Shown here: one piece after another, positions 70 through 48,308 of the stretch | Numbering within the stretch: the first letter of the stretch is position 1 | Layout: each line of letters opens with the position of its first letter | Virus record (IMG/VR): IMGVR_UViG_3300049823_000342 | Location: 3,360 to 67,359 of that record | Reading direction: 5' to 3' (one strand) | From: a virus | Taxonomy: Duplodnaviria; Caudoviricetes | DNA length: 64,000 bases | The notes under the pieces: model-generated | The model's input: only the letters and a program-made list of their open reading frames with translations | What the model was told of the DNA's origin: nothing | The model's database searches: none | Made by a program: the position numbers and the translations under genes

Positions 70-98
70 GAGCGCTCGGTCATTTTGACCGAACGCTC
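70..98. repeat. 29-bp palindrome GAGCGCTCGGTCA-TTT-TGACCGAACGCTC, isolated copy of the repeat inside the ParB-like gene
   Basis: One mismatch to the reverse complement of 1585-1613; similar flanks (CC before, AATGA after). Confidence 0.9.
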
Positions 99-121
99 AA
101 TGACGAGTCGCAAGCGGAATA

Positions 122-136
122 GAACAAATTGAGAAC
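122..136. promoter_or_regulatory. Alphaproteobacterial LexA (SOS) box GAAC-N7-GAAC
   Basis: GAAC AAATTGA GAAC matches the GTTC-N7-GTTC consensus on the minus strand, upstream of the gene starting at 43. Confidence 0.75.
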
Positions 137-168
137 ATCGACAATCGGACAGCATGGCGAAGCTGTCC

Positions 169-867
169 CTAAAGCGGACGAGCGTATTCGCCGATGACGC
201 GCGCAACGACGATATATTGATCCTCTTCGTGGCCCAGATCGCGCGCAAGAACCGTCTCTTCCTCGTCGTTGCCATCACGGAGGGAAAATCGTGCCAGGAT
301 GACGCCGCCATTGACCCGGAACAGATAATAAGCGCCGTGCATCATGCGCTCGCCGGGCTGATGATCCTTGCAGAACAACATTGTCCCCGCGTCGATATTC
401 AGCGCGTCGTTGCGCGTCGGCGCCCGAGCCATCCAGATGCCCGACGTGTCGCCCAGGCTGGCATAGAGCCAATCCTTGCGCATTAGCGTGGTGGTCAGGG
501 GCGTGAGCTTCCCCAGCTCGTCAATTTCGTGGGTCAGATATTCGGGAACCTCGACCCAGTCGGCGTCGTCCGCATTGATTAGCGAAGGTCGGCGGCTCCG
601 GCCTAGCAAGGCGTCCACGCTCGTCGACAGAAGGTCAGCAACCGTGGACAGGTGCTCAGCAGGCCAAGGGCGCTTCCCGGTCCAATAATTCGCCATTGCC
701 GAGGACGAAACGCCAGTCCCCTTCATGATCGCCGAATAGCTGACATTCACCGCTTCTGCTCGATCGCGGACTCGCTTTGCAGTTTGCTCCACAAATCCCG
801 CTTGACGGTCCTCGTTCGTGGACTTATTAACCTCGTTCGATGATAAAGAGCTTGAGGTCTTAGCCAT
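169..867 (-). CDS. Phage repressor (XRE HTH plus degenerate S24-like C-terminal domain); start uncertain, GTG at 792 is likely
   Basis: HTH-like VSYSAIMKGTGVSSSAMANYWTG...LSTSVDALLG; divergent from ner; Mu c position. Confidence 0.75.
   Translation of the reverse strand: MAKTSSSLSSNEVNKSTNEDRQAGFVEQTAKRVRDRAEAVNVSYSAIMKGTGVSSSAMANYWTGKRPWPAEHLSTVADLLSTSVDALLGRSRRPSLINADDADWVEVPEYLTHEIDELGKLTPLTTTLMRKDWLYASLGDTSGIWMARAPTRNDALNIDAGTMLFCKDHQPGERMMHGAYYLFRVNGGVILARFSLRDGNDEEETVLARDLGHEEDQYIVVARVIGEYARPL
802..839 (+). promoter_or_regulatory. Putative early promoter Pe with operator repeats
   Basis: TTGACG(802-807)-17 bp-TATTAA(825-830); direct repeat CCTCGTTCG at 810-818 and 831-839. Confidence 0.6.
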
Positions 868-1132
868 GTCAGTGACCCTCCACCCGGAACGGGTGAAAGC
901 GGAAATTCGGATGCGATGCGGCACATTGGTTCGCTTCGCCGAGGCCAACGGCCTCAATGAAGAGCAGGTGCGCGACTATCTTCGCGGCCGTAGCGGAACG
1001 GCTCGTGCGGCCGTCGCCAAGCTGTTGGATGTCGATCCTGAGCATCTGATTCTCTCTCGCGCTGTCCCGGTTCGTGGAGTTGTTACCGCAAATGAGGATG
1101 CGGCGCACGGTCTAAGTGCGGGGGCCAAATAG
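866..1132 (+). CDS. ner: Ner/Nlp-like DNA-binding regulator
   Basis: LHPERVKAEIRMRCGTLVRFAEANGL pattern; RBS GAGGT; first early gene. Confidence 0.7.
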   Translation: MSVTLHPERVKAEIRMRCGTLVRFAEANGLNEEQVRDYLRGRSGTARAAVAKLLDVDPEHLILSRAVPVRGVVTANEDAAHGLSAGAK

Positions 1133-1134
1133 GC

Positions 1135-2256
1135 ATGGCCTCGAAACCCAAAGATGCCGCGCCGGTCGTTGATCAGGTGTTGGAGCTGGACCCCGCCACG
1201 ATCGACGTTTCGGGACGGGTCGGCTTGTTCTTCCCCGAGAAGGCCGAAGCCTATGCCGCGCTGATCGCGCGGGATGGGCAGCGGACCCCGATCACGGTTC
1301 GCCGCAACGGCAGCCGGGCCAAGTTGCCGTGGACGTTGGTCGCCGGGCTTCACCGCCATCGGGGTTGCGAAATCGCGGGCCTGAAGGTTCGCGCGCTTGC
1401 CGTTGAAGGCGATGAGGATGCGCTGAAAGCGGTGCAGGCGAGCGAGAACCTCGACCGCCGTGACTTGTCGCCGCTTGAGCGCGCAATGTTTGTCGCGGCC
1501 GTTGCGGACGCTGCGAAGGCCCGGCTGCGTCAGCTTCACGACGGAAAGTCGCAACAGCAAATAGCCGCAGAAATCGGCGCTTCCGAGCGTTCGGTCAAAA
1601 TGACCGAACGCTCAAATGAGCGCTGCGACATTTTGTCGCAACGCTCGGACGAGCGTCGGGGCATTTTGCCCCAACGCTCAAATGACCGCGCAGATAAGGT
1701 CCAATTCACGCCGGTCGAAAGGGCGGACGCCGAGGCTCAAGGCGCGGAAGACGCGCTCCGTTCAACATATCAGTGGAGCGAAGCGACCGCTGCGGCCTGT
1801 GGCATGGGCGTCGAGAGCCTCAAGCGCTCGCTCCGCATCTTCCGCATCATCGTCGAGCCGAACCGCGACCTGATGGACGCGATCAAGGATCATGCCGTAG
1901 CGCAGAATGCGAGCGCGTTGCTGGCGATCTGCGCGAACGGGAGTGACCCGGCGAACGTCCGCGCGATCGTCGAATGGCTGATCGCGCATCCCGTCGCGAA
2001 AACCGCCGACGAGGCGATGGTCGCGCTGGAGCTGATGCCCAGCCGCGGCGGCACCGGCGCGCCTGCGACGGGGGACACGAAGTTCCTCAACGGGCTGCAA
2101 TCGAACCTCCAGCGGCTGTCGCTGAACGGCCAGCGGCGCGCGGCCGACGTGATCGCGCAGTCGATCGCGCCGACGGCGCTGGTCGCGGTGCGCGACGCCA
2201 TTTCGGCGCGGATCGCGGCGATGGAAGCCCCCAAAGACAAGGGAGAGAAGGCATGA
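1135..2256 (+). CDS. ParB N-terminal (CTPase) domain protein with an internal 11-aa repeat and an HTH
   Basis: PITVRR...LVAGLHR...SENLDRRDLSPLERA is the ParB/Srx signature; later WSEATAAACGMGVESLKRSLRI is HTH-like. Confidence 0.85.
   Translation: MASKPKDAAPVVDQVLELDPATIDVSGRVGLFFPEKAEAYAALIARDGQRTPITVRRNGSRAKLPWTLVAGLHRHRGCEIAGLKVRALAVEGDEDALKAVQASENLDRRDLSPLERAMFVAAVADAAKARLRQLHDGKSQQQIAAEIGASERSVKMTERSNERCDILSQRSDERRGILPQRSNDRADKVQFTPVERADAEAQGAEDALRSTYQWSEATAAACGMGVESLKRSLRIFRIIVEPNRDLMDAIKDHAVAQNASALLAICANGSDPANVRAIVEWLIAHPVAKTADEAMVALELMPSRGGTGAPATGDTKFLNGLQSNLQRLSLNGQRRAADVIAQSIAPTALVAVRDAISARIAAMEAPKDKGEKA
1585..1679. repeat. Three tandem 29-bp palindromes, 33-bp period, inside the ParB-like CDS
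   Basis: GAGCGTTCGGTCA-AAA-TGACCGAACGCTC (1585-1613); GAGCGCTGCGACA-TTT-TGTCGCAACGCTC (1618-1646); GAGCGTCGGGGCA-TTT-TGCCCCAACGCTC (1651-1679). Confidence 0.95.
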
Positions 2257-2543: not shown

Positions 2544-2917
2544 CTGGCGCCTCGCAAGACTGGCACGAAGGCGATCTGGCCGTGTGCATCAACAATATCG
2601 GCTGGTGGGAAGAGCGCGCGCATGGCGCTGTCGACGGTCCGGTACTGGATCAGGTTCTGCGGGTCGCCGCCGTCTATTCCGGCCTTGGCCTGGAGTTCGA
2701 CGAGTTCCCCGACCAGATTTGGCCGGAGCGCGAGTTTCGGCGGATCGAGCCCGACCATAGCGCCGCCAACGACCCAGATATCGTCGCGCTGATCAAGGGC
2801 GCGCGCGTTCTTTCCTCTTGTTCCGGCCTTCCCCCTCTCGGCCGGAACGGCGCGGCGGCATTGCCCCTTTCCGCCGCCGCGCCACCCCCTTCCAATGGAG
2901 TGACCGACCATGGCTGA
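2540..2917 (+). CDS. Hypothetical early protein
   Basis: ATGA overlap; in operon. Confidence 0.65.
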   Translation: MTGASQDWHEGDLAVCINNIGWWEERAHGAVDGPVLDQVLRVAAVYSGLGLEFDEFPDQIWPEREFRRIEPDHSAANDPDIVALIKGARVLSSCSGLPPLGRNGAAALPLSAAAPPPSNGVTDHG

Positions 2918-3248
2918 CACCAGCTATACCATTGCGCTCGACATCTTCGCCCGACATGGCAAGCGGCCGATCCTGATTGCCGTGGATGCGGCGACGTCGG
3001 ACTATTCGATCTATGAGCTGGGCGCCGCGCCCGACGCCGATACCGTGGCCGAGATTATCGAGGCATTGGAACGGGAGATCGAGATCGCCGAGGAATGCCC
3101 GGTCGCGATCGAAACTGACCATAGCATCCATTTTTCGTCCGATGTCTTCCATCGCTGGCTGTTCAAGAAAGGCATCGTGCATCGCTATCGGCCGTTGGCG
3201 CCGATCGTCGAGGCGCTGATCCGCCAGCACGCGCCGGAGTGGGCGTGA
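2910..3248 (+). CDS. Hypothetical early protein
   Basis: RBS GGAG, coupled in operon. Confidence 0.7.
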   Translation: MADTSYTIALDIFARHGKRPILIAVDAATSDYSIYELGAAPDADTVAEIIEALEREIEIAEECPVAIETDHSIHFSSDVFHRWLFKKGIVHRYRPLAPIVEALIRQHAPEWA

Positions 3249-3340: not shown

Positions 3341-3567
3341 TGGGCAATCTTCGTCCCGCGCCCGCCAATCTGACGCCGCAGCGCGTCGACAGCCTGATCC
3401 GGGCGCTCGACCATTATGACGGCGTCGCGGCGCTGCGCGCCTTTGGCCTGGTGCCCGAGGAGATTGAGAGCATTCGCCGGATCGCGCGGCGGCGCGGCAC
3501 GTCGTCGCTGGAAGCGGCGCGGACGTTGCTGCGCGCGGCGCTGGAAGCGGTCGAGGGCGCCGACTGA
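3340..3567 (+). CDS. Hypothetical protein (possible ribbon-helix-helix)
   Basis: TGATG coupling on both sides. Confidence 0.6.
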   Translation: MGNLRPAPANLTPQRVDSLIRALDHYDGVAALRAFGLVPEEIESIRRIARRRGTSSLEAARTLLRAALEAVEGAD

Positions 3568-4019
3568 TGGCGAAGGCGCGCGCCACCAGCCAGCTTGCCT
3601 TTGCGTTCGACCTGCCGCGGCCGGCGACGCATCCGGCAGCGATGGCGGGGTCGGACGCGCGCACGGCGCGGATGGTCGGCGAGATATTGAACAGCGACCC
3701 GCGCGCCCGCGAAGTGATCGCCGCCGAAATGAGCGTCCTGCTGGACGATCAGGTGAGCAAGGCGATGCTCGACGCGTGGTCGGCGCCGGGGAAGGACGCG
3801 CACAATATCAGTTGGTCGCGGCTGCGCGCGCTGATCCTCGTCACCAACCGTTTCGACCTGCTCGACCGCGACCTGCGCGAGATCGGCGCGGCGGTGCTGG
3901 TCGGCGAGGAAATCCACACGGCCCGACTGGGCCATCTGAAATCGAAAATCGCCGAGCTGACCGCCGAACTGCGCGCGGTCGAGCGGATGGCGGCGCCGAT
4001 TAGCCGAGGGAGAGAGTGA
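3567..4019 (+). CDS. Mu-like regulatory protein upstream of the transposase
   Basis: AEMSVLL...VSKAMLDAWSAP...HNIS pattern typical of this position in alphaproteobacterial Mu-like phages. Confidence 0.7.
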   Translation: MAKARATSQLAFAFDLPRPATHPAAMAGSDARTARMVGEILNSDPRAREVIAAEMSVLLDDQVSKAMLDAWSAPGKDAHNISWSRLRALILVTNRFDLLDRDLREIGAAVLVGEEIHTARLGHLKSKIAELTAELRAVERMAAPISRGRE

Positions 4020-5989
4020 TGTCGAAACCGAACAAGCTGTGGTTCACGGCGAAGGAACTGGCCGAGCTGGAGCTTGCGGGCCTGCCGCGGCGCAAGCGCG
4101 ATATCAACCGGCTGGCCGAGGACGAGAATTGGGCGGTCGCGGTGAGCGACGGCGGCGCGCCGCTCGCGCGGCGCCATTCGGGCCGGGGCGGCGGGTATCA
4201 ATATCATGTGTCGCTGCTCCCCGCCGCCGCGCGCGCCGATCTGGTGCAGAAGGGGCTGGCGGGCGGCGTGGAAGCGGCCGAGGCGGGGAGTTGCAACGAC
4301 GCCTCGAACCTGTGGCACTGGCTGGGAACGCAGTCCGACGAGGTGCGCGCCGAAGCGCAGCGCCGGGCGAGCGTCATCGCCTGTATCGAGATGTTCGAGA
4401 GCGCGAACATGCCGCGATCGGCGGCGATCGCGGCGGTCGCGGAGTCCGAGGGGCTGAGCGCCGGAACGCTGTGGAACTGGCTGCGGCTGGTGAAGGGCGT
4501 CCCCGCGGCCGAGCGCCTACCGCTGCTGGCACCGCGCCGATCGGGCGGCGGCGTCGAGGCCGAGGTCGATCCGGCGATCTGGCAGGAACTGCTGTCGGAC
4601 TATCTGCGGCTGTCGGCGCCGGGCTGGCCCTCCTGCTACGATCGCGCGGCAGCGAAGGCGAAGGCGCGCGGCATCACCTTGCCGCATAGCCGGACGCTCT
4701 ATCGGAAGATGGTCCGCGAAGTCCCGGCGCAGGTCATCACGCTGCGCCGAAAGGGCGAGGAAGAGCTTCGCAAGACGCTCCCGGCGCAAATCCGGTCAGT
4801 CGCCGACCTGCACGCGATGGAGCTGGTGAACATCGACGGGCACCGCTGCGACGTGTTCGTGAAGATGCCCGACGGGCGGATCATCCGCCCGACGATGATC
4901 GCGATCCAGGACGTCTATTCGCGCAAGTTCCTGTCGTGGCGCTTCGCCGAAACCGAGGACATGGTCACGGCACGGCTCGTCTTTGCCGACCTGTTCGCGA
5001 AATGGGGCATCCCCAAGGGCCTGCTGACGGACAACGGCCGCGCCTTTGCGTCGAAATGGCTGACGGGCGGCGCGAAGACGCGCTTCCGCTTCAAAATCCG
5101 TGACGAAGACCCGACCGGGCTGCTCGTCGCGCTGGGCATCACGATCCATTGGGCCAAGCCGTATCGCGGCCAGTCGAAGCCGATCGAACGCGGTTTCCGC
5201 GACCTGTGCGACGCGATCGCGAAGCATCCGGCTTTCGAGGGCGCTTACACCGGCAACCGCCCGGACGCGAAGCCCGAGAATTACGGCACCAAGGCGGTCG
5301 ATTTCGAGACGTTCGAGCGGGTGTGGAACGCCGGGATGGAAGCGCACAACCGCAAGCTGGGGCGGCGGAGCGAGATGGCGATGGGCCGCAAGAGCTTCGA
5401 CCAGGTGTTCGAGGAAAGTTATGCCCGTTCGCCGGTCGGCAAGGCGACCGAAGAGCAGCTTCGCATGGCGCTGCTCGCGGCCGATCAGGTTCGCACCGAT
5501 CGCAAGACGGGTGCGATCACGCTGGCGGGCAATCGCTATTGGTCGCCCGAGCTGAGCGATATCGCGGGGCAGCCGGTGACGGTGCGCTTCGACCCCGAGC
5601 AGCTCCATGCGCCGATCCACGTCTATGACCGCGCCGGGCGCTTCCTCGCGACCGCCCCGCTGTGGGAGGCGACCGGCTTCCTCGACATGGCGGCGGCGAA
5701 GAAGCGCCAGCGGCTGGAGCGCAATTGGAAGAAATCGGCGAAGGAAGCCGCCGCCGCGCTCGACCTGCTCAGCGCCGACGAGCTGGTTGCGGCGCTGCCC
5801 GATTACGAGCCCGAGGGCGTGGCGCCGAAGCCCGGTGCCACGCGGATGGTGCCGCGACGCGGGCAGACGGTCGCGCAGCTCAAGGCCGTCTCACAGACCG
5901 CTCAGAAGCCTCTGACCACCCCCCAGGCAGAAGCGACGATCGACCGCTTTGCACGCGCCGCCGAGCGGCATCTGCGCGCCATCGACTAA
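4016..5989 (+). CDS. MuA-family DDE transposase
   Basis: N-terminal Mu HTH (WFTAKELAEL..LP), catalytic NIDGH / LTDNG / KPIERGF, 657 aa. Confidence 0.95.
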   Translation: MMSKPNKLWFTAKELAELELAGLPRRKRDINRLAEDENWAVAVSDGGAPLARRHSGRGGGYQYHVSLLPAAARADLVQKGLAGGVEAAEAGSCNDASNLWHWLGTQSDEVRAEAQRRASVIACIEMFESANMPRSAAIAAVAESEGLSAGTLWNWLRLVKGVPAAERLPLLAPRRSGGGVEAEVDPAIWQELLSDYLRLSAPGWPSCYDRAAAKAKARGITLPHSRTLYRKMVREVPAQVITLRRKGEEELRKTLPAQIRSVADLHAMELVNIDGHRCDVFVKMPDGRIIRPTMIAIQDVYSRKFLSWRFAETEDMVTARLVFADLFAKWGIPKGLLTDNGRAFASKWLTGGAKTRFRFKIRDEDPTGLLVALGITIHWAKPYRGQSKPIERGFRDLCDAIAKHPAFEGAYTGNRPDAKPENYGTKAVDFETFERVWNAGMEAHNRKLGRRSEMAMGRKSFDQVFEESYARSPVGKATEEQLRMALLAADQVRTDRKTGAITLAGNRYWSPELSDIAGQPVTVRFDPEQLHAPIHVYDRAGRFLATAPLWEATGFLDMAAAKKRQRLERNWKKSAKEAAAALDLLSADELVAALPDYEPEGVAPKPGATRMVPRRGQTVAQLKAVSQTAQKPLTTPQAEATIDRFARAAERHLRAID

Positions 5990-6002
5990 AGAGGAGAGAG
6001 AC

Positions 6003-6995
6003 GTGAACAACCCCGAAGATTTCCCCGTCGACGAGGCCGAGGTCAAGGCATGGCTGAACGAGCGCCGGGCGACGACCGGATTGTCCTGGAAGGCCATCGC
6101 TGACGAAAGCGGCCTGAAATCCGGCACGCTGTCGAACTGGGCGAACGGCACCTATGCCGGTCGCGGGGAGAATGTTGCCCGCGACGTGTTCAAATACCGG
6201 CAGATGCTCGAATCGCAGACCGAGCGCGCCGCCGATCGGCAGAGCGCCGGCCTGACCGAAGCCCCGAACTTCATCGAAACCGCAACGGGGCGCCGTCTGC
6301 GCGGCCTGCTGATGACCGCGCATAGCGGCGAAATCACTTATGCCGCGACCGGCCCCGGCACCGGCAAGACGAAGGAAGCGCAGAACTACATCGCCTGCAT
6401 GTCGAACGCCTACATGGTGACGATGAAGCCGACGACGAAGAGCGTCACGGCGATGATGGGCGAGGTCATCCGCGCCCTTGGCGGCAAGTCGGGCACGAGC
6501 TGGGCGCGCCAGATGTCCGCCCAGGTCATCGACATGGTGAAGGGCCGTCGCTGCCTGCTGATCGTGGACGAAGCGAACTATCTGGAGTTCGAGGCCCACG
6601 AAGAGTTGCGCGCATGGCACGATATCGCCGGGCTCGGCATCTGCCTGCTCGGCAACGAGGAACTGCATTCGACGATCCGCGGCGGCGCGCTGCGCGGTGC
6701 CCGGCATAGCTTCGCCCGGCTCAATAGCCGCATTGCGATGAAGCATGTCCAGGACATGCCGCTGCCCGAGGATATCGCCGCCTACCTCGACGCCTGGAAG
6801 ATCGAGAATGCCGAACAGCGCGCACTGCTGACCAAGGTCGGCATGACGCCCGGAACGGGCGGGCTGCGCGAAATCCGCCAGATTATCACGAACGCGACCA
6901 TGCTGGCCTTTGAGGACGGTTCACCGCTGACCCACGCGCATTTGCGCGAGGCGATGGGCGCCCGCGCGACCAGCCACCTTCGCGTCGTGACCTGA
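6003..6995 (+). CDS. MuB-like AAA+ transposition ATPase
   Basis: GTG start with RBS GAGGAG; N-terminal HTH, Walker A GPGTGKT, Walker B LLIVDEA. Confidence 0.92.
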   Translation: MNNPEDFPVDEAEVKAWLNERRATTGLSWKAIADESGLKSGTLSNWANGTYAGRGENVARDVFKYRQMLESQTERAADRQSAGLTEAPNFIETATGRRLRGLLMTAHSGEITYAATGPGTGKTKEAQNYIACMSNAYMVTMKPTTKSVTAMMGEVIRALGGKSGTSWARQMSAQVIDMVKGRRCLLIVDEANYLEFEAHEELRAWHDIAGLGICLLGNEELHSTIRGGALRGARHSFARLNSRIAMKHVQDMPLPEDIAAYLDAWKIENAEQRALLTKVGMTPGTGGLREIRQIITNATMLAFEDGSPLTHAHLREAMGARATSHLRVVT

Positions 6996-37463: not shown

Positions 37464-37497
37464 CAGGATTTAATGTGTTCGCGCACATTAAATCCTG
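37464..37497. repeat. Perfect 14-bp inverted repeat CAGGATTTAATGTG-TTCGCG-CACATTAAATCCTG
   Basis: Directly visible, 30 bp upstream of the ATG at 37527. Confidence 0.9.
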
Positions 37498-47838: not shown

Positions 47839-48308
47839 TGCAGGATCAGCGCATGACCGCCAATCCGCTGCGCGGCGAGGCCGCGCTGATCATCGGCGAG
47901 GGTGACGGCGAGCGATTCCTGACGCTCGTCTTCGACTATGAGGCGATGATCGTCGCCGAGGCGACCTATGGCGAGCCGATCGGCGTGGTCAGCGATCACG
48001 CCGATCGCGGCTTCGTCGGCGCGATCCGCGCGATGCTGTTCGGCACGCTGCGCGCGCATCACCCCGAGATCGATCTCGCCGAGGCGACGCACATCTGTTT
48101 CACCCAGGCGCGCGCCGTCAAGGCGGCGATGGACGAGGCGGCACGCAATTCGATGCCGCCGCCGCAGGGTGAGGAGGAGAGGGACGAGGCGCGCCCTCGG
48201 CGAGCTGGGACGCGCTCTGGGGCCAGTGGTGCGAAGCAGGGCTCGACCCCGAAGGCTTCTTCCGCGCGACCCCGCGCACGTTCCAGATCCTCGTCACCGC
48301 GCGGCTGA
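47838..48308 (+). CDS. Tail assembly chaperone (GTA-gp10-like, G)
   Basis: NPLRGEA.L...L.FDYEAM..AE; basic C-terminal tail typical of the post-frameshift region. Confidence 0.75.
   Translation: MQDQRMTANPLRGEAALIIGEGDGERFLTLVFDYEAMIVAEATYGEPIGVVSDHADRGFVGAIRAMLFGTLRAHHPEIDLAEATHICFTQARAVKAAMDEAARNSMPPPQGEEERDEARPRRAGTRSGASGAKQGSTPKASSARPRARSRSSSPRG

Follow-up and report, generated by a model that had tools for sequence, protein, structure and literature searches.

The window analyzed here comprises 64,000 nucleotides of viral DNA (Duplodnaviria; Caudoviricetes), namely positions 3,360 to 67,359 of the IMG/VR record IMGVR_UViG_3300049823_000342, a 67-kb contig that is termed L001 in the following. 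It begins within the genome of a Mu-like transposable phage, 1,979 bp from its left end, and encodes an orphan ParB-like protein (P0001), whose gene carries three tandem 29-bp palindromes within its coding sequence; a fourth copy, the remote copy, lies upstream of a leftward gene. These palindromes are probably the cognate parS/OB-like sites of the very protein that is encoded around them, a reading which is drawn from sequence comparison. A dimer of this protein would read each half-site via the recognition helix of its ParB-type helix-turn-helix (HTH), and site and helix appear to have co-evolved into several specificity alleles.

Palindromes within an orphan ParB-like gene

All four palindromes conform to the pattern GAGCG-N19-CGCTC, with arms of 13 bp and a center of 3 nt (Table 1). 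Unit 1 is perfect, and units 2 and 3 as well as the remote copy, which is the reverse complement of unit 1 at 28 of 29 positions, each have a single mismatch (position 7 or 8, counted from the center). The in-gene units follow each other in frame with a period of 33 bp, 11 codons each, and specify residues 150-182 of the 373-aa protein, the peptides being ERSVKMTERSN, ERCDILSQRSD and ERRGILPQRSN for units 1, 2 and 3, respectively. Their inner bases read CGGT/ACCG, GCGA/TCGC and GGGG/CCCC, and both arms of unit 3 equal the arms of the single in-gene site of phage L002. Folded as single strands, the four units reach -11.7 to -15.5 kcal/mol, corresponding to z-scores of -5 to -10 relative to shuffled sequences. 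The contig contains six hairpins whose 13-bp arms have no more than one mismatch, and four of these are the palindromes described here; the remaining two, a 30-mer (GGATTTAATGTG...CACATTAAATCC; 37466-37495) and a 31-mer (CGATCGGCGTGGTC...GATCACGCCGATCG; 47977-48007), are unrelated in sequence to the units of the ParB-like gene. The minus strand of 1585-1679 encodes a similar peptide repeat, resulting in a weak self-match of the protein in a six-frame search (E 4e-5), which is considered an artifact because the palindromes lie in frame.

P0001 is composed of an N-terminal ParB fold (residues ~15-134), the repeat-bearing linker (140-212), a ParB-type HTH domain (214-300) and C-terminal helices (313-364). 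The protein matches PHROG 3264 'ParB-like partition protein' (E 8e-24), and a profile of 60 homologs, compared with the sequences of the PDB, retrieves Noc (7ol9, E 7e-11), ParB (4umk, 2e-10) and KorB (8qa8, 3e-4). A structural model calculated with AlphaFold2 (AF2) has a predicted local distance difference test score (pLDDT) of 79.6; the N-domain and the helical domain 214-300 are confident, and the linker contains two low-confidence stretches, residues 169-184, which include most of units 2 and 3, and 204-212. Fold comparison (Foldseek, VIA) relates the model to ParB of M. xanthus (Z 13.8) and of C. crescentus (Z 12.6, root-mean-square deviation (rmsd) 2.5 over 96 residues), with full-length Foldseek matches that span ~290 columns. 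The part of the model from 110 to 305 resembles SopB-DNA (3mky; Z 7.4, rmsd 3.2, 104 residues), Spo0J-parS (4umk; Z 7.4), the DNA-binding domain of Noc on its site NBS (6y93; Z 7.3) and that of KorB (1r71; Z 5.5), the Z-scores of ~5.5-7.4 being middling for helical domains. Two features of the ParB/Noc/KorB superfamily, an N-terminal ParB/Srx-type fold and a ParB-type HTH following the N-domain, are hence present in P0001. Moreover, G71, H73, R74, E104, N105, R108 and R109 are invariant in the 60 homologs, and the nucleotide-pocket motifs GxxR and ENxxR take the form G71-x-H73-R74 and E104-N105-x-x-R108 in this family.

Neither an AAA_31 nor a CbiA match, either of which would indicate ParA, was obtained in the 67-kb contig, with controls positive in 14 of 14 genomes, and the protein is therefore regarded as an orphan ParB; a search of the same contig for a second ParB-like gene returned none. 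Thus, the preliminary description of this DNA, which had been made from the sequence alone and had announced three in-gene palindromes at a 33-bp period with compensatory inner bases, a fourth at 70-98, an array situated between the N-terminal domain and the HTH of a ParB-like protein, and the lack of ParA, proved accurate when these features were re-measured. Two further assignments had to be discarded. Membership of P0001 in DUF3102 was rejected, given that PF11300 matched none of the 60 homologs (E <= 1) and nothing in five related phage genomes (E <= 10). A second HTH at 131-156 (Sigma70_r4/GerE) is sub-threshold, is missing from two of the three linker architectures and is modeled as one long helix. 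Searching 50,697 phage records by tblastn with P0001 and one distant homolog yielded no relative among cultured phages.

The in-gene site is a property of the entire family. Homolog searches delivered 160 loci, 102 of which contain a homolog holding the N-domain anchor, and most of the homolog loci are viral contigs of 30-40 kb with the gene located 1.5-4.5 kb from one end. In the 330 nt following the ENLDRR...ERAM motif, hairpins whose arms measure 9 bp or more amount to 2.7 per kb, compared to 0.37 per kb elsewhere in the loci. De-duplication left 73 distinct genes, 72 of which have a linker palindrome with 9 or more of the 12 arm pairs formed, usually 11-12; for the distinct homologous genes (26-100% identity), the count is 71 of 72. 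Across the homologs, the site measures 25-29 bp and resides in the shared linker. When these 72 sites are aligned, 93.5% of the cells are paired, as opposed to 60.6% in shuffles and 20-44% in slid controls, a paired fraction that is inflated by the choice of the best palindrome in each 240-nt stretch; all 12 arm pairs show changes on both sides. The shared core of the sites reads G-N-C-A (N3) T-G-N-C. The outer right arm is, in most lineages, formed by codons for a conserved (V/A)-Y-G-W motif, to which the left arm adapts.

Four complete distant relatives contain exactly one full site per genome, located in the gene, and most complete relatives hold only the in-gene site. In the clade of the window, extra units, zero to three in number, are positioned ~70 nt further upstream, and some members possess a remote copy. 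In addition, arrays of two or three palindrome variants were noticed in distant ParB-like genes (L049:1788-1875, L112:4932-5045 and L143:834-945), comprising three units in L049 and, in L143, two 35-bp units with 16-bp arms that differ as GGGCA versus GGTCA. Arrays of several spellings therefore recur in the family and are not confined to the clade of the window.

Covariation of site and recognition helix

To relate site and protein, 72 proteins were aligned, and 244 variable columns outside the palindrome-coding part were scored against each position of the half-site. For site position 2, column 231 ranks first with a normalized mutual information of 0.84 (z 11), the runner-up column reaching 0.35. 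Column 230 is the top column for site position 5 (0.88, z 7.7) as well as for position 6 (0.48, z 4.3), and column 227 for position 3 (0.48, z 4.2). At the outer site positions 8 and 10, no column stands out among the 244. The underlying pairings are simple: R231 occurs with C:G in 49 of 50 cases, and N, D, K, Y and other residues than R at this place occur with A:T in 20 of 22; at residue 230, H, Y, F or W accompany T (31/32), R or K accompany G (22/24) and Q or E accompany C (13/15); and at residues 227-228, ES is found with T, DA with G and RD with A. Such pairings of residues and bases look chemically sensible by direct readout.

Shared ancestry was taken into account by means of phylogenetically independent pairs, taken from a tree for which columns 126-242 had been omitted. 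These pairs agree by 12.5 to 0 (p ~2e-4), 9 to 0 (p 0.004) and 11 to 0 (p 0.001), sign-test values that are optimistic since the residue classes were picked after viewing the tables. Protein pairs with 50% or more identity elsewhere were divided by whether they differ at site position 2: column 231 differs in 92% of those that do and in 7% of the rest, and for neighboring columns the gap in the same test is no larger than 0.2. In the AF2 model, residues 226, 227, 230 and 231 are positions 1, 2, 5 and 6 of helix 226-250, which succeeds helix 214-222; positions 1, 2, 5 and 6 of such a helix form the usual base-contacting face of a helix-turn-helix. Hence, the residues that co-vary with site positions 3 (226/227), 5/6 (230) and 2 (231) lie at the start of the predicted recognition helix.

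In the near clade, defined as 38 proteins of at least 59% identity, this relation takes the form of discrete alleles. Proteins with ES at residues 227-228 carry a V..T unit with the half-site GGTCA (17 of 17), those with DA a G..P unit with GGGCA (10 of 10) and those with RD a D..S unit with G/CGACA (8 of 8, seven in the linker array and one at the downstream site), and the three proteins with DK have an S..P or G..L unit. The rule holds across three different linker architectures, and K230 or Q230 goes along with G or C at site position 5; L089 and L097, both of the RD/Q type, carry GCGACA. While the stretch LKRSLRIF is constant in the near clade, the residues immediately preceding it, 226-228, change along with the site, so that the notion of an invariant HTH in this clade turned out to be wrong. 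By these rules, the protein of the window is classed as ES/K/R type, with unit 1 and the remote copy (CGGTCA) as its putative own-type sites, and units 2 and 3 are read as the spellings of the sister-phage alleles RD/Q and DA/K. All nine foreign units identified at the peptide level keep the compensatory pair. As a side note, L003 (3421-3445) and L091 (212-236) contain a second palindrome at the ancestral position just before Y-x-W, which encodes AGD(M/I)LSS in the linker architecture DKALAAKAKAAG... (near clade); its spelling is D..S, also in ES-type proteins, which carry their own-type unit further upstream.

The remote copy obeys the same rule. It was encountered, at equivalent places, in three phages with the corresponding module and is of the own type in each of them, i.e. 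CGGTCA in the window (ES) and in L005/L007 (ES) and GGGGCA in L002 (DA), although these three phages represent only two independent states. A matching remote copy, which the preliminary description had proposed to look for in related phages, thus recurs in L002 and L005/L007, where it follows each phage's own allele. The remote copy, the leftward 75-aa gene and a conserved GAAC-N7-GAAC box occur together, and sister phages devoid of the leftward module (L003, L006 and L089) are also devoid of the remote copy; a pattern scan of the viral contigs for further remote modules returned only the two already found.

Table 1. Features of the window, with positions counted from its first nucleotide
Feature	Position	Strand	Remarks
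Leftward gene (75 aa, phage gene)	1..43 (whole: L001:3175-3402)	-	ATG 43-41; runs off the window
Remote copy	70..98		CGGTCA, putative own type; between the GAAC-N7-GAAC box and the ribosome-binding site of the leftward gene
GAAC-N7-GAAC box	122..136		Upstream of the leftward gene
Repressor-like gene	169..867	-	Cro/C1-type HTH, PHROG 4 'transcriptional repressor'; between both own-type sites
Ner-like gene	866..1132	+	HTH_35
Orphan ParB/Noc/KorB-like gene (P0001, 373 aa)	1135..2256	+	PHROG, profile, AF2 model, structure matches
Unit 1	1585..1613		Half-site ...CGGTCA; spelling fitting the window's own allele (ES 227-228, K230, R231)
Unit 2	1618..1646		Half-site ...GCGACA; in sister phages pairs with RD 227-228 and Q230
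Unit 3	1651..1679		Half-site ...GGGGCA; in sister phages pairs with DA 227-228 and K230
Predicted recognition-helix codons (V226 E227 S228 L229 K230 R231 ...)	1810..1848	+	Covariation and AF2 model
Mu-type transposase A (MuA)	4016-5989	+	Downstream of the array, in its orientation
MuB-like ATPase	5949-6995	+	Downstream of the array, in its orientation

With respect to the origin of this arrangement, the site, ~60-240 nt upstream of the helix codons depending on lineage and unit, is probably kept in the gene because site and cognate helix are then passed on jointly in mosaic phage genomes. Units 2 and 3 most likely stem from unequal recombination between phages at the shared GAGCG...CGCTC arms, and the disordered linker may tolerate insertions of 11 codons, letting foreign units enter. 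If the analogy to KorB and ParB holds, the protein would load at its sites, perhaps as a nucleotide-dependent clamp (PMC11790492). Once loaded, it would act on the 1.5-kb stretch between the own-type sites, which comprises the repressor gene, the early switch and ner; the leftward promoter holding the remote copy would be a further target, possibly along with the downstream transposase operon (A and B).

Competing explanations and relation to known ParB systems

That the palindromes serve as nucleic-acid structure, be it a cruciform, a hairpin or an RNA stem-loop (nut-like, for processing or for pausing), with arms that covary only for the sake of pairing, is highly improbable. The strong single-strand folding of each unit, the covariation of all 12 arm pairs across the family, the restriction of the center to A and T in the window's clade and the prospect of identical RNA stem-loops, formed by unit 1 in the rightward and by the remote copy in the leftward transcript, would all suit such a function. 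However, mismatches in the arms are devoid of wobble bias (G:T 14, A:C 18, other 38), and position 7 is mismatched in 31 of the 72 sites, which fits a base pair that is not contacted by protein better than it fits a stem. Centers of both orientations (AAA and TTT) occur in one and the same gene, and in L002 the center of the remote site is opposite in orientation to that of the in-gene site; structure alone does not predict that residues of the recognition helix track positions of the arms. A scan for terminators detected no terminator-like site in L001 3100-4600, a segment including the remote copy, and no T-run follows the in-gene units on the plus strand (L001 4944-5038, outside the scanned segment). 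On these grounds, an RNA hairpin or terminator was rejected, and selection for hairpins or cruciforms, one of the two alternatives put forward in the preliminary description, gives way to the other, multiple specificities, since palindromy is explained by a dimeric reader and each unit is the spelling of one recognition-helix allele. The accompanying idea of a different ParB paralog for each variant did not hold in its original form: the contig contains a single ParB-like gene, the other specificities being those of sister phages.

Alternatively, another protein, such as an early phage protein, the N-terminal domain of the transposase or a host factor, might bind the palindromes, in which case the connection to the ParB helix would be one of genetic linkage only, and palindromy at unread positions as well as the tandem array would result from neutral quasi-palindrome template switching and unequal recombination. 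This explanation is improbable. It draws on the physical proximity of site and helix, by which cassette exchange becomes possible, on an array copy number that differs between close relatives, as recombination would give, on a partly decayed foreign unit in L005 and on MuA, which keeps an enhancer-binding-type N-terminal domain (HTH_Tnp_Mu_1). Yet only columns 226/227, 230 and 231 out of 244 stand out, while equally near neighbors do not, and the co-varying columns are situated on the base-contacting face of a ParB-type recognition helix; besides, the pairings of residues and bases are chemically plausible, and the rule connecting allele and spelling spans three linker architectures. A generic repetitive extragenic palindromic (REP)- or miniature inverted-repeat transposable element (MITE)-like element of the host that landed in the phage has next to no chance of being the explanation, even though tandem palindromic units with conserved outer arms superficially resemble REP clusters: merely four copies exist in the 67-kb contig, related phage contigs hold only in-gene and remote copies, the 3.6-Mb genome of a Sphingopyxis hosting a sister prophage contains no true copy, and the in-gene position is conserved in ~70 phages. 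The REP-like element was rejected for the copy numbers in the contig and the Sphingopyxis genome.

The reading of the palindromes as cognate sites of the ParB-like protein, which the preliminary description had anticipated as a partition-independent ParB/parS-like switch, accords with the orphan ParB fold, the covariation of site and helix and the lack of ParA. Several points count against it nonetheless, in addition to the inflated paired fraction, the optimistic p-values and the few independent states of the remote copy mentioned above. Binding of the palindromes by the ParB-like family is a prediction from covariation and fold. Site and helix are encoded 60-240 nt apart, and exchange of the whole cassette could mimic co-evolution, a linkage that is unlikely because the flanking columns do not co-vary. 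Of the canonical motifs for binding and hydrolysis of CTP, GERRxRA and ENLQR, the GERR part is GLHR in P0001, and the protein has no match to Pfam ParB_N (PF02195) at E <= 1; of the 60 homologs, 14 match PF02195 weakly (best E 0.0011) and several bear a precomputed PF02195 label, so the family is a divergent branch and does not fall outside the ParB fold. Furthermore, the foreign unit in L005 is partly decayed at the DNA level, as would fit a neutral by-product, and the reading does not account for two foreign spellings persisting in the window, intact over positions 1-6.

A more far-reaching proposal, which we consider rather unlikely, takes the array of three spellings for a working device instead of a scar left by recombination: with docking sites for the three main specificity alleles, it would let ParB-like proteins of sister phages, be they co-resident or superinfecting, load onto the phage DNA, or it would titrate them. 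If true, the array would mediate cross-talk between phages by exclusion, hitch-hiking or recognition of related phages. Through the remote copy, which is of the own type, the protein of the phage itself would be linked to a leftward operon that responds to damage, and the variant arrays in L049, L112 and L143 would represent the same strategy.

Among the known systems, ParB-parS shares with the phage family the N-terminal ParB fold with GxxR and ENxxR, the ParB-type HTH and the palindromic site, the dimer being a prediction in the phage case. The site can lie inside the parB gene itself, as exemplified by a parS site inside spo0J of B. subtilis. On the other hand, the phage has no ParA, and a transposable phage does not need partition; its site measures 25-29 bp with an odd center of 3 nt, GLHR replaces GERR, and the site differs greatly from one relative to the next, in contrast to the nearly universal parS of chromosomes. 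The SopB-sopC system of F features tandem palindromic repeats of one spelling, which lie outside sopB and act with SopA, and in N15 the sites are near promoters. It resembles the window in its tandem palindromic repeats and in the ParB-fold HTH (SopB-DNA, see above), but differs in that the repeats of the window are located in the gene, come in several spellings and are not accompanied by a ParA.

KorB of RK2 is a regulator of the ParB family that recognizes the palindromic OB with a central base, at sites in as well as far from promoters; there are 12 identical OB sites, KorB slides up to 1.5 kb and its partner is KorA (PMC11790492). This sliding range equals the spacing of the two own-type sites in the window, whereas most phage relatives have a single in-gene site and no KorA-like partner was identified here. 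In the case of ParB and Noc, few residues of the recognition helix decide which palindrome is read, reflecting one ancient switch between two paralogs (PMC7383237). Likewise, residues 227, 230 and 231 track site positions 3, 5 and 2 in the phage family, though in this case close relatives differ in many alleles, and sites for three of them stand next to each other in a single gene. A survey of the ParB-CTPase fold published in 2025 lists orphan prophage ParBs without function and mentions neither transposable phages nor palindromes (PMC12704722), and papers on alphaproteobacterial Mu-like phages only list the 'ParB' gene (PMC5488378, PMC4236739). In the literature searched, no paper on a palindromic site of the ParB-like family of transposable phages was found. 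Compared to ParB-parS and KorB-OB, the family adds a readable specificity code, the linkage of site and gene and a three-allele array.

Prophages often carry orphan ParB-like proteins, few of which have been assigned a role; for the family in transposable phages, a predicted DNA target is now at hand, together with a simple residue-to-base code that is testable through three or four residues and a rationale for the location of the site inside the gene. In addition, the family provides a natural example of how a ParB-type helix and its palindrome co-evolve rapidly. As one phage carries the sites of three alleles, cross-recognition between related phages is directly testable.

Remote copy, leftward gene and phage context

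The left end of the phage is the TG at contig 1380 (window -1979), where homology to the sister phages starts; the viral contig L003 terminates at the matching point. The remote copy is therefore 2,049 bp away from the left end. An inverted copy of the left-end 22-mer, sought in the contig in order to place the right end, was not found. Affiliation with Mu-like phages is documented by matches to DDE_2 (4e-56), HTH_Tnp_Mu_2, Mu-transpos_C, Phage-MuB_C and HTH_35, and Sphingopyxis prophages are the closest relatives of the phage. The first 1379 positions of the contig (L001:1-1379) lie outside the region common to the sister phages and are probably flanking host DNA, and the contig as a whole, at 67 kb versus ~37-40 kb for the sister phages, contains much DNA beyond one Mu-like genome.

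The leftward 75-aa gene has a homolog at the equivalent place in L002, and its ribosome-binding site is located at ~51-57 of the window. Pfam and PHROG searches gave no match for its product, and a YozE-like identity was dropped, being without support from either database. The GAAC-N7-GAAC box upstream, which we take to be the LexA-box pattern of alphaproteobacteria, is invariant in L002 and L005 except for two spacer bases, the pattern alone being not rarer than chance in the window; the leftward gene may be subject to SOS control, which the preliminary description had taken as given. Relative to a hand-picked leftward promoter, the remote copy would span approximately +15 to +43; this placement is weak, because a promoter scan revealed nothing at its thresholds.

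The ParB-like gene is flanked by the Ner-like gene and by small open reading frames, several of which occupy the interval between it and MuA. The probable ATG of the repressor-like gene (867-865, MAKTSS...) and the ATG of the Ner-like gene (866-868) overlap face to face, leaving no intergenic room in which a Mu-type switch could have its expected divergent promoters and operators. Finally, an open reading frame of 112 aa between the ParB-like gene and MuA (2910-3248, plus strand) shows a sub-threshold match to the integrase core rve (E 6e-6, 26.8 bits versus a cut-off of 32.6) and may constitute a transposase-related fragment or a small accessory protein.

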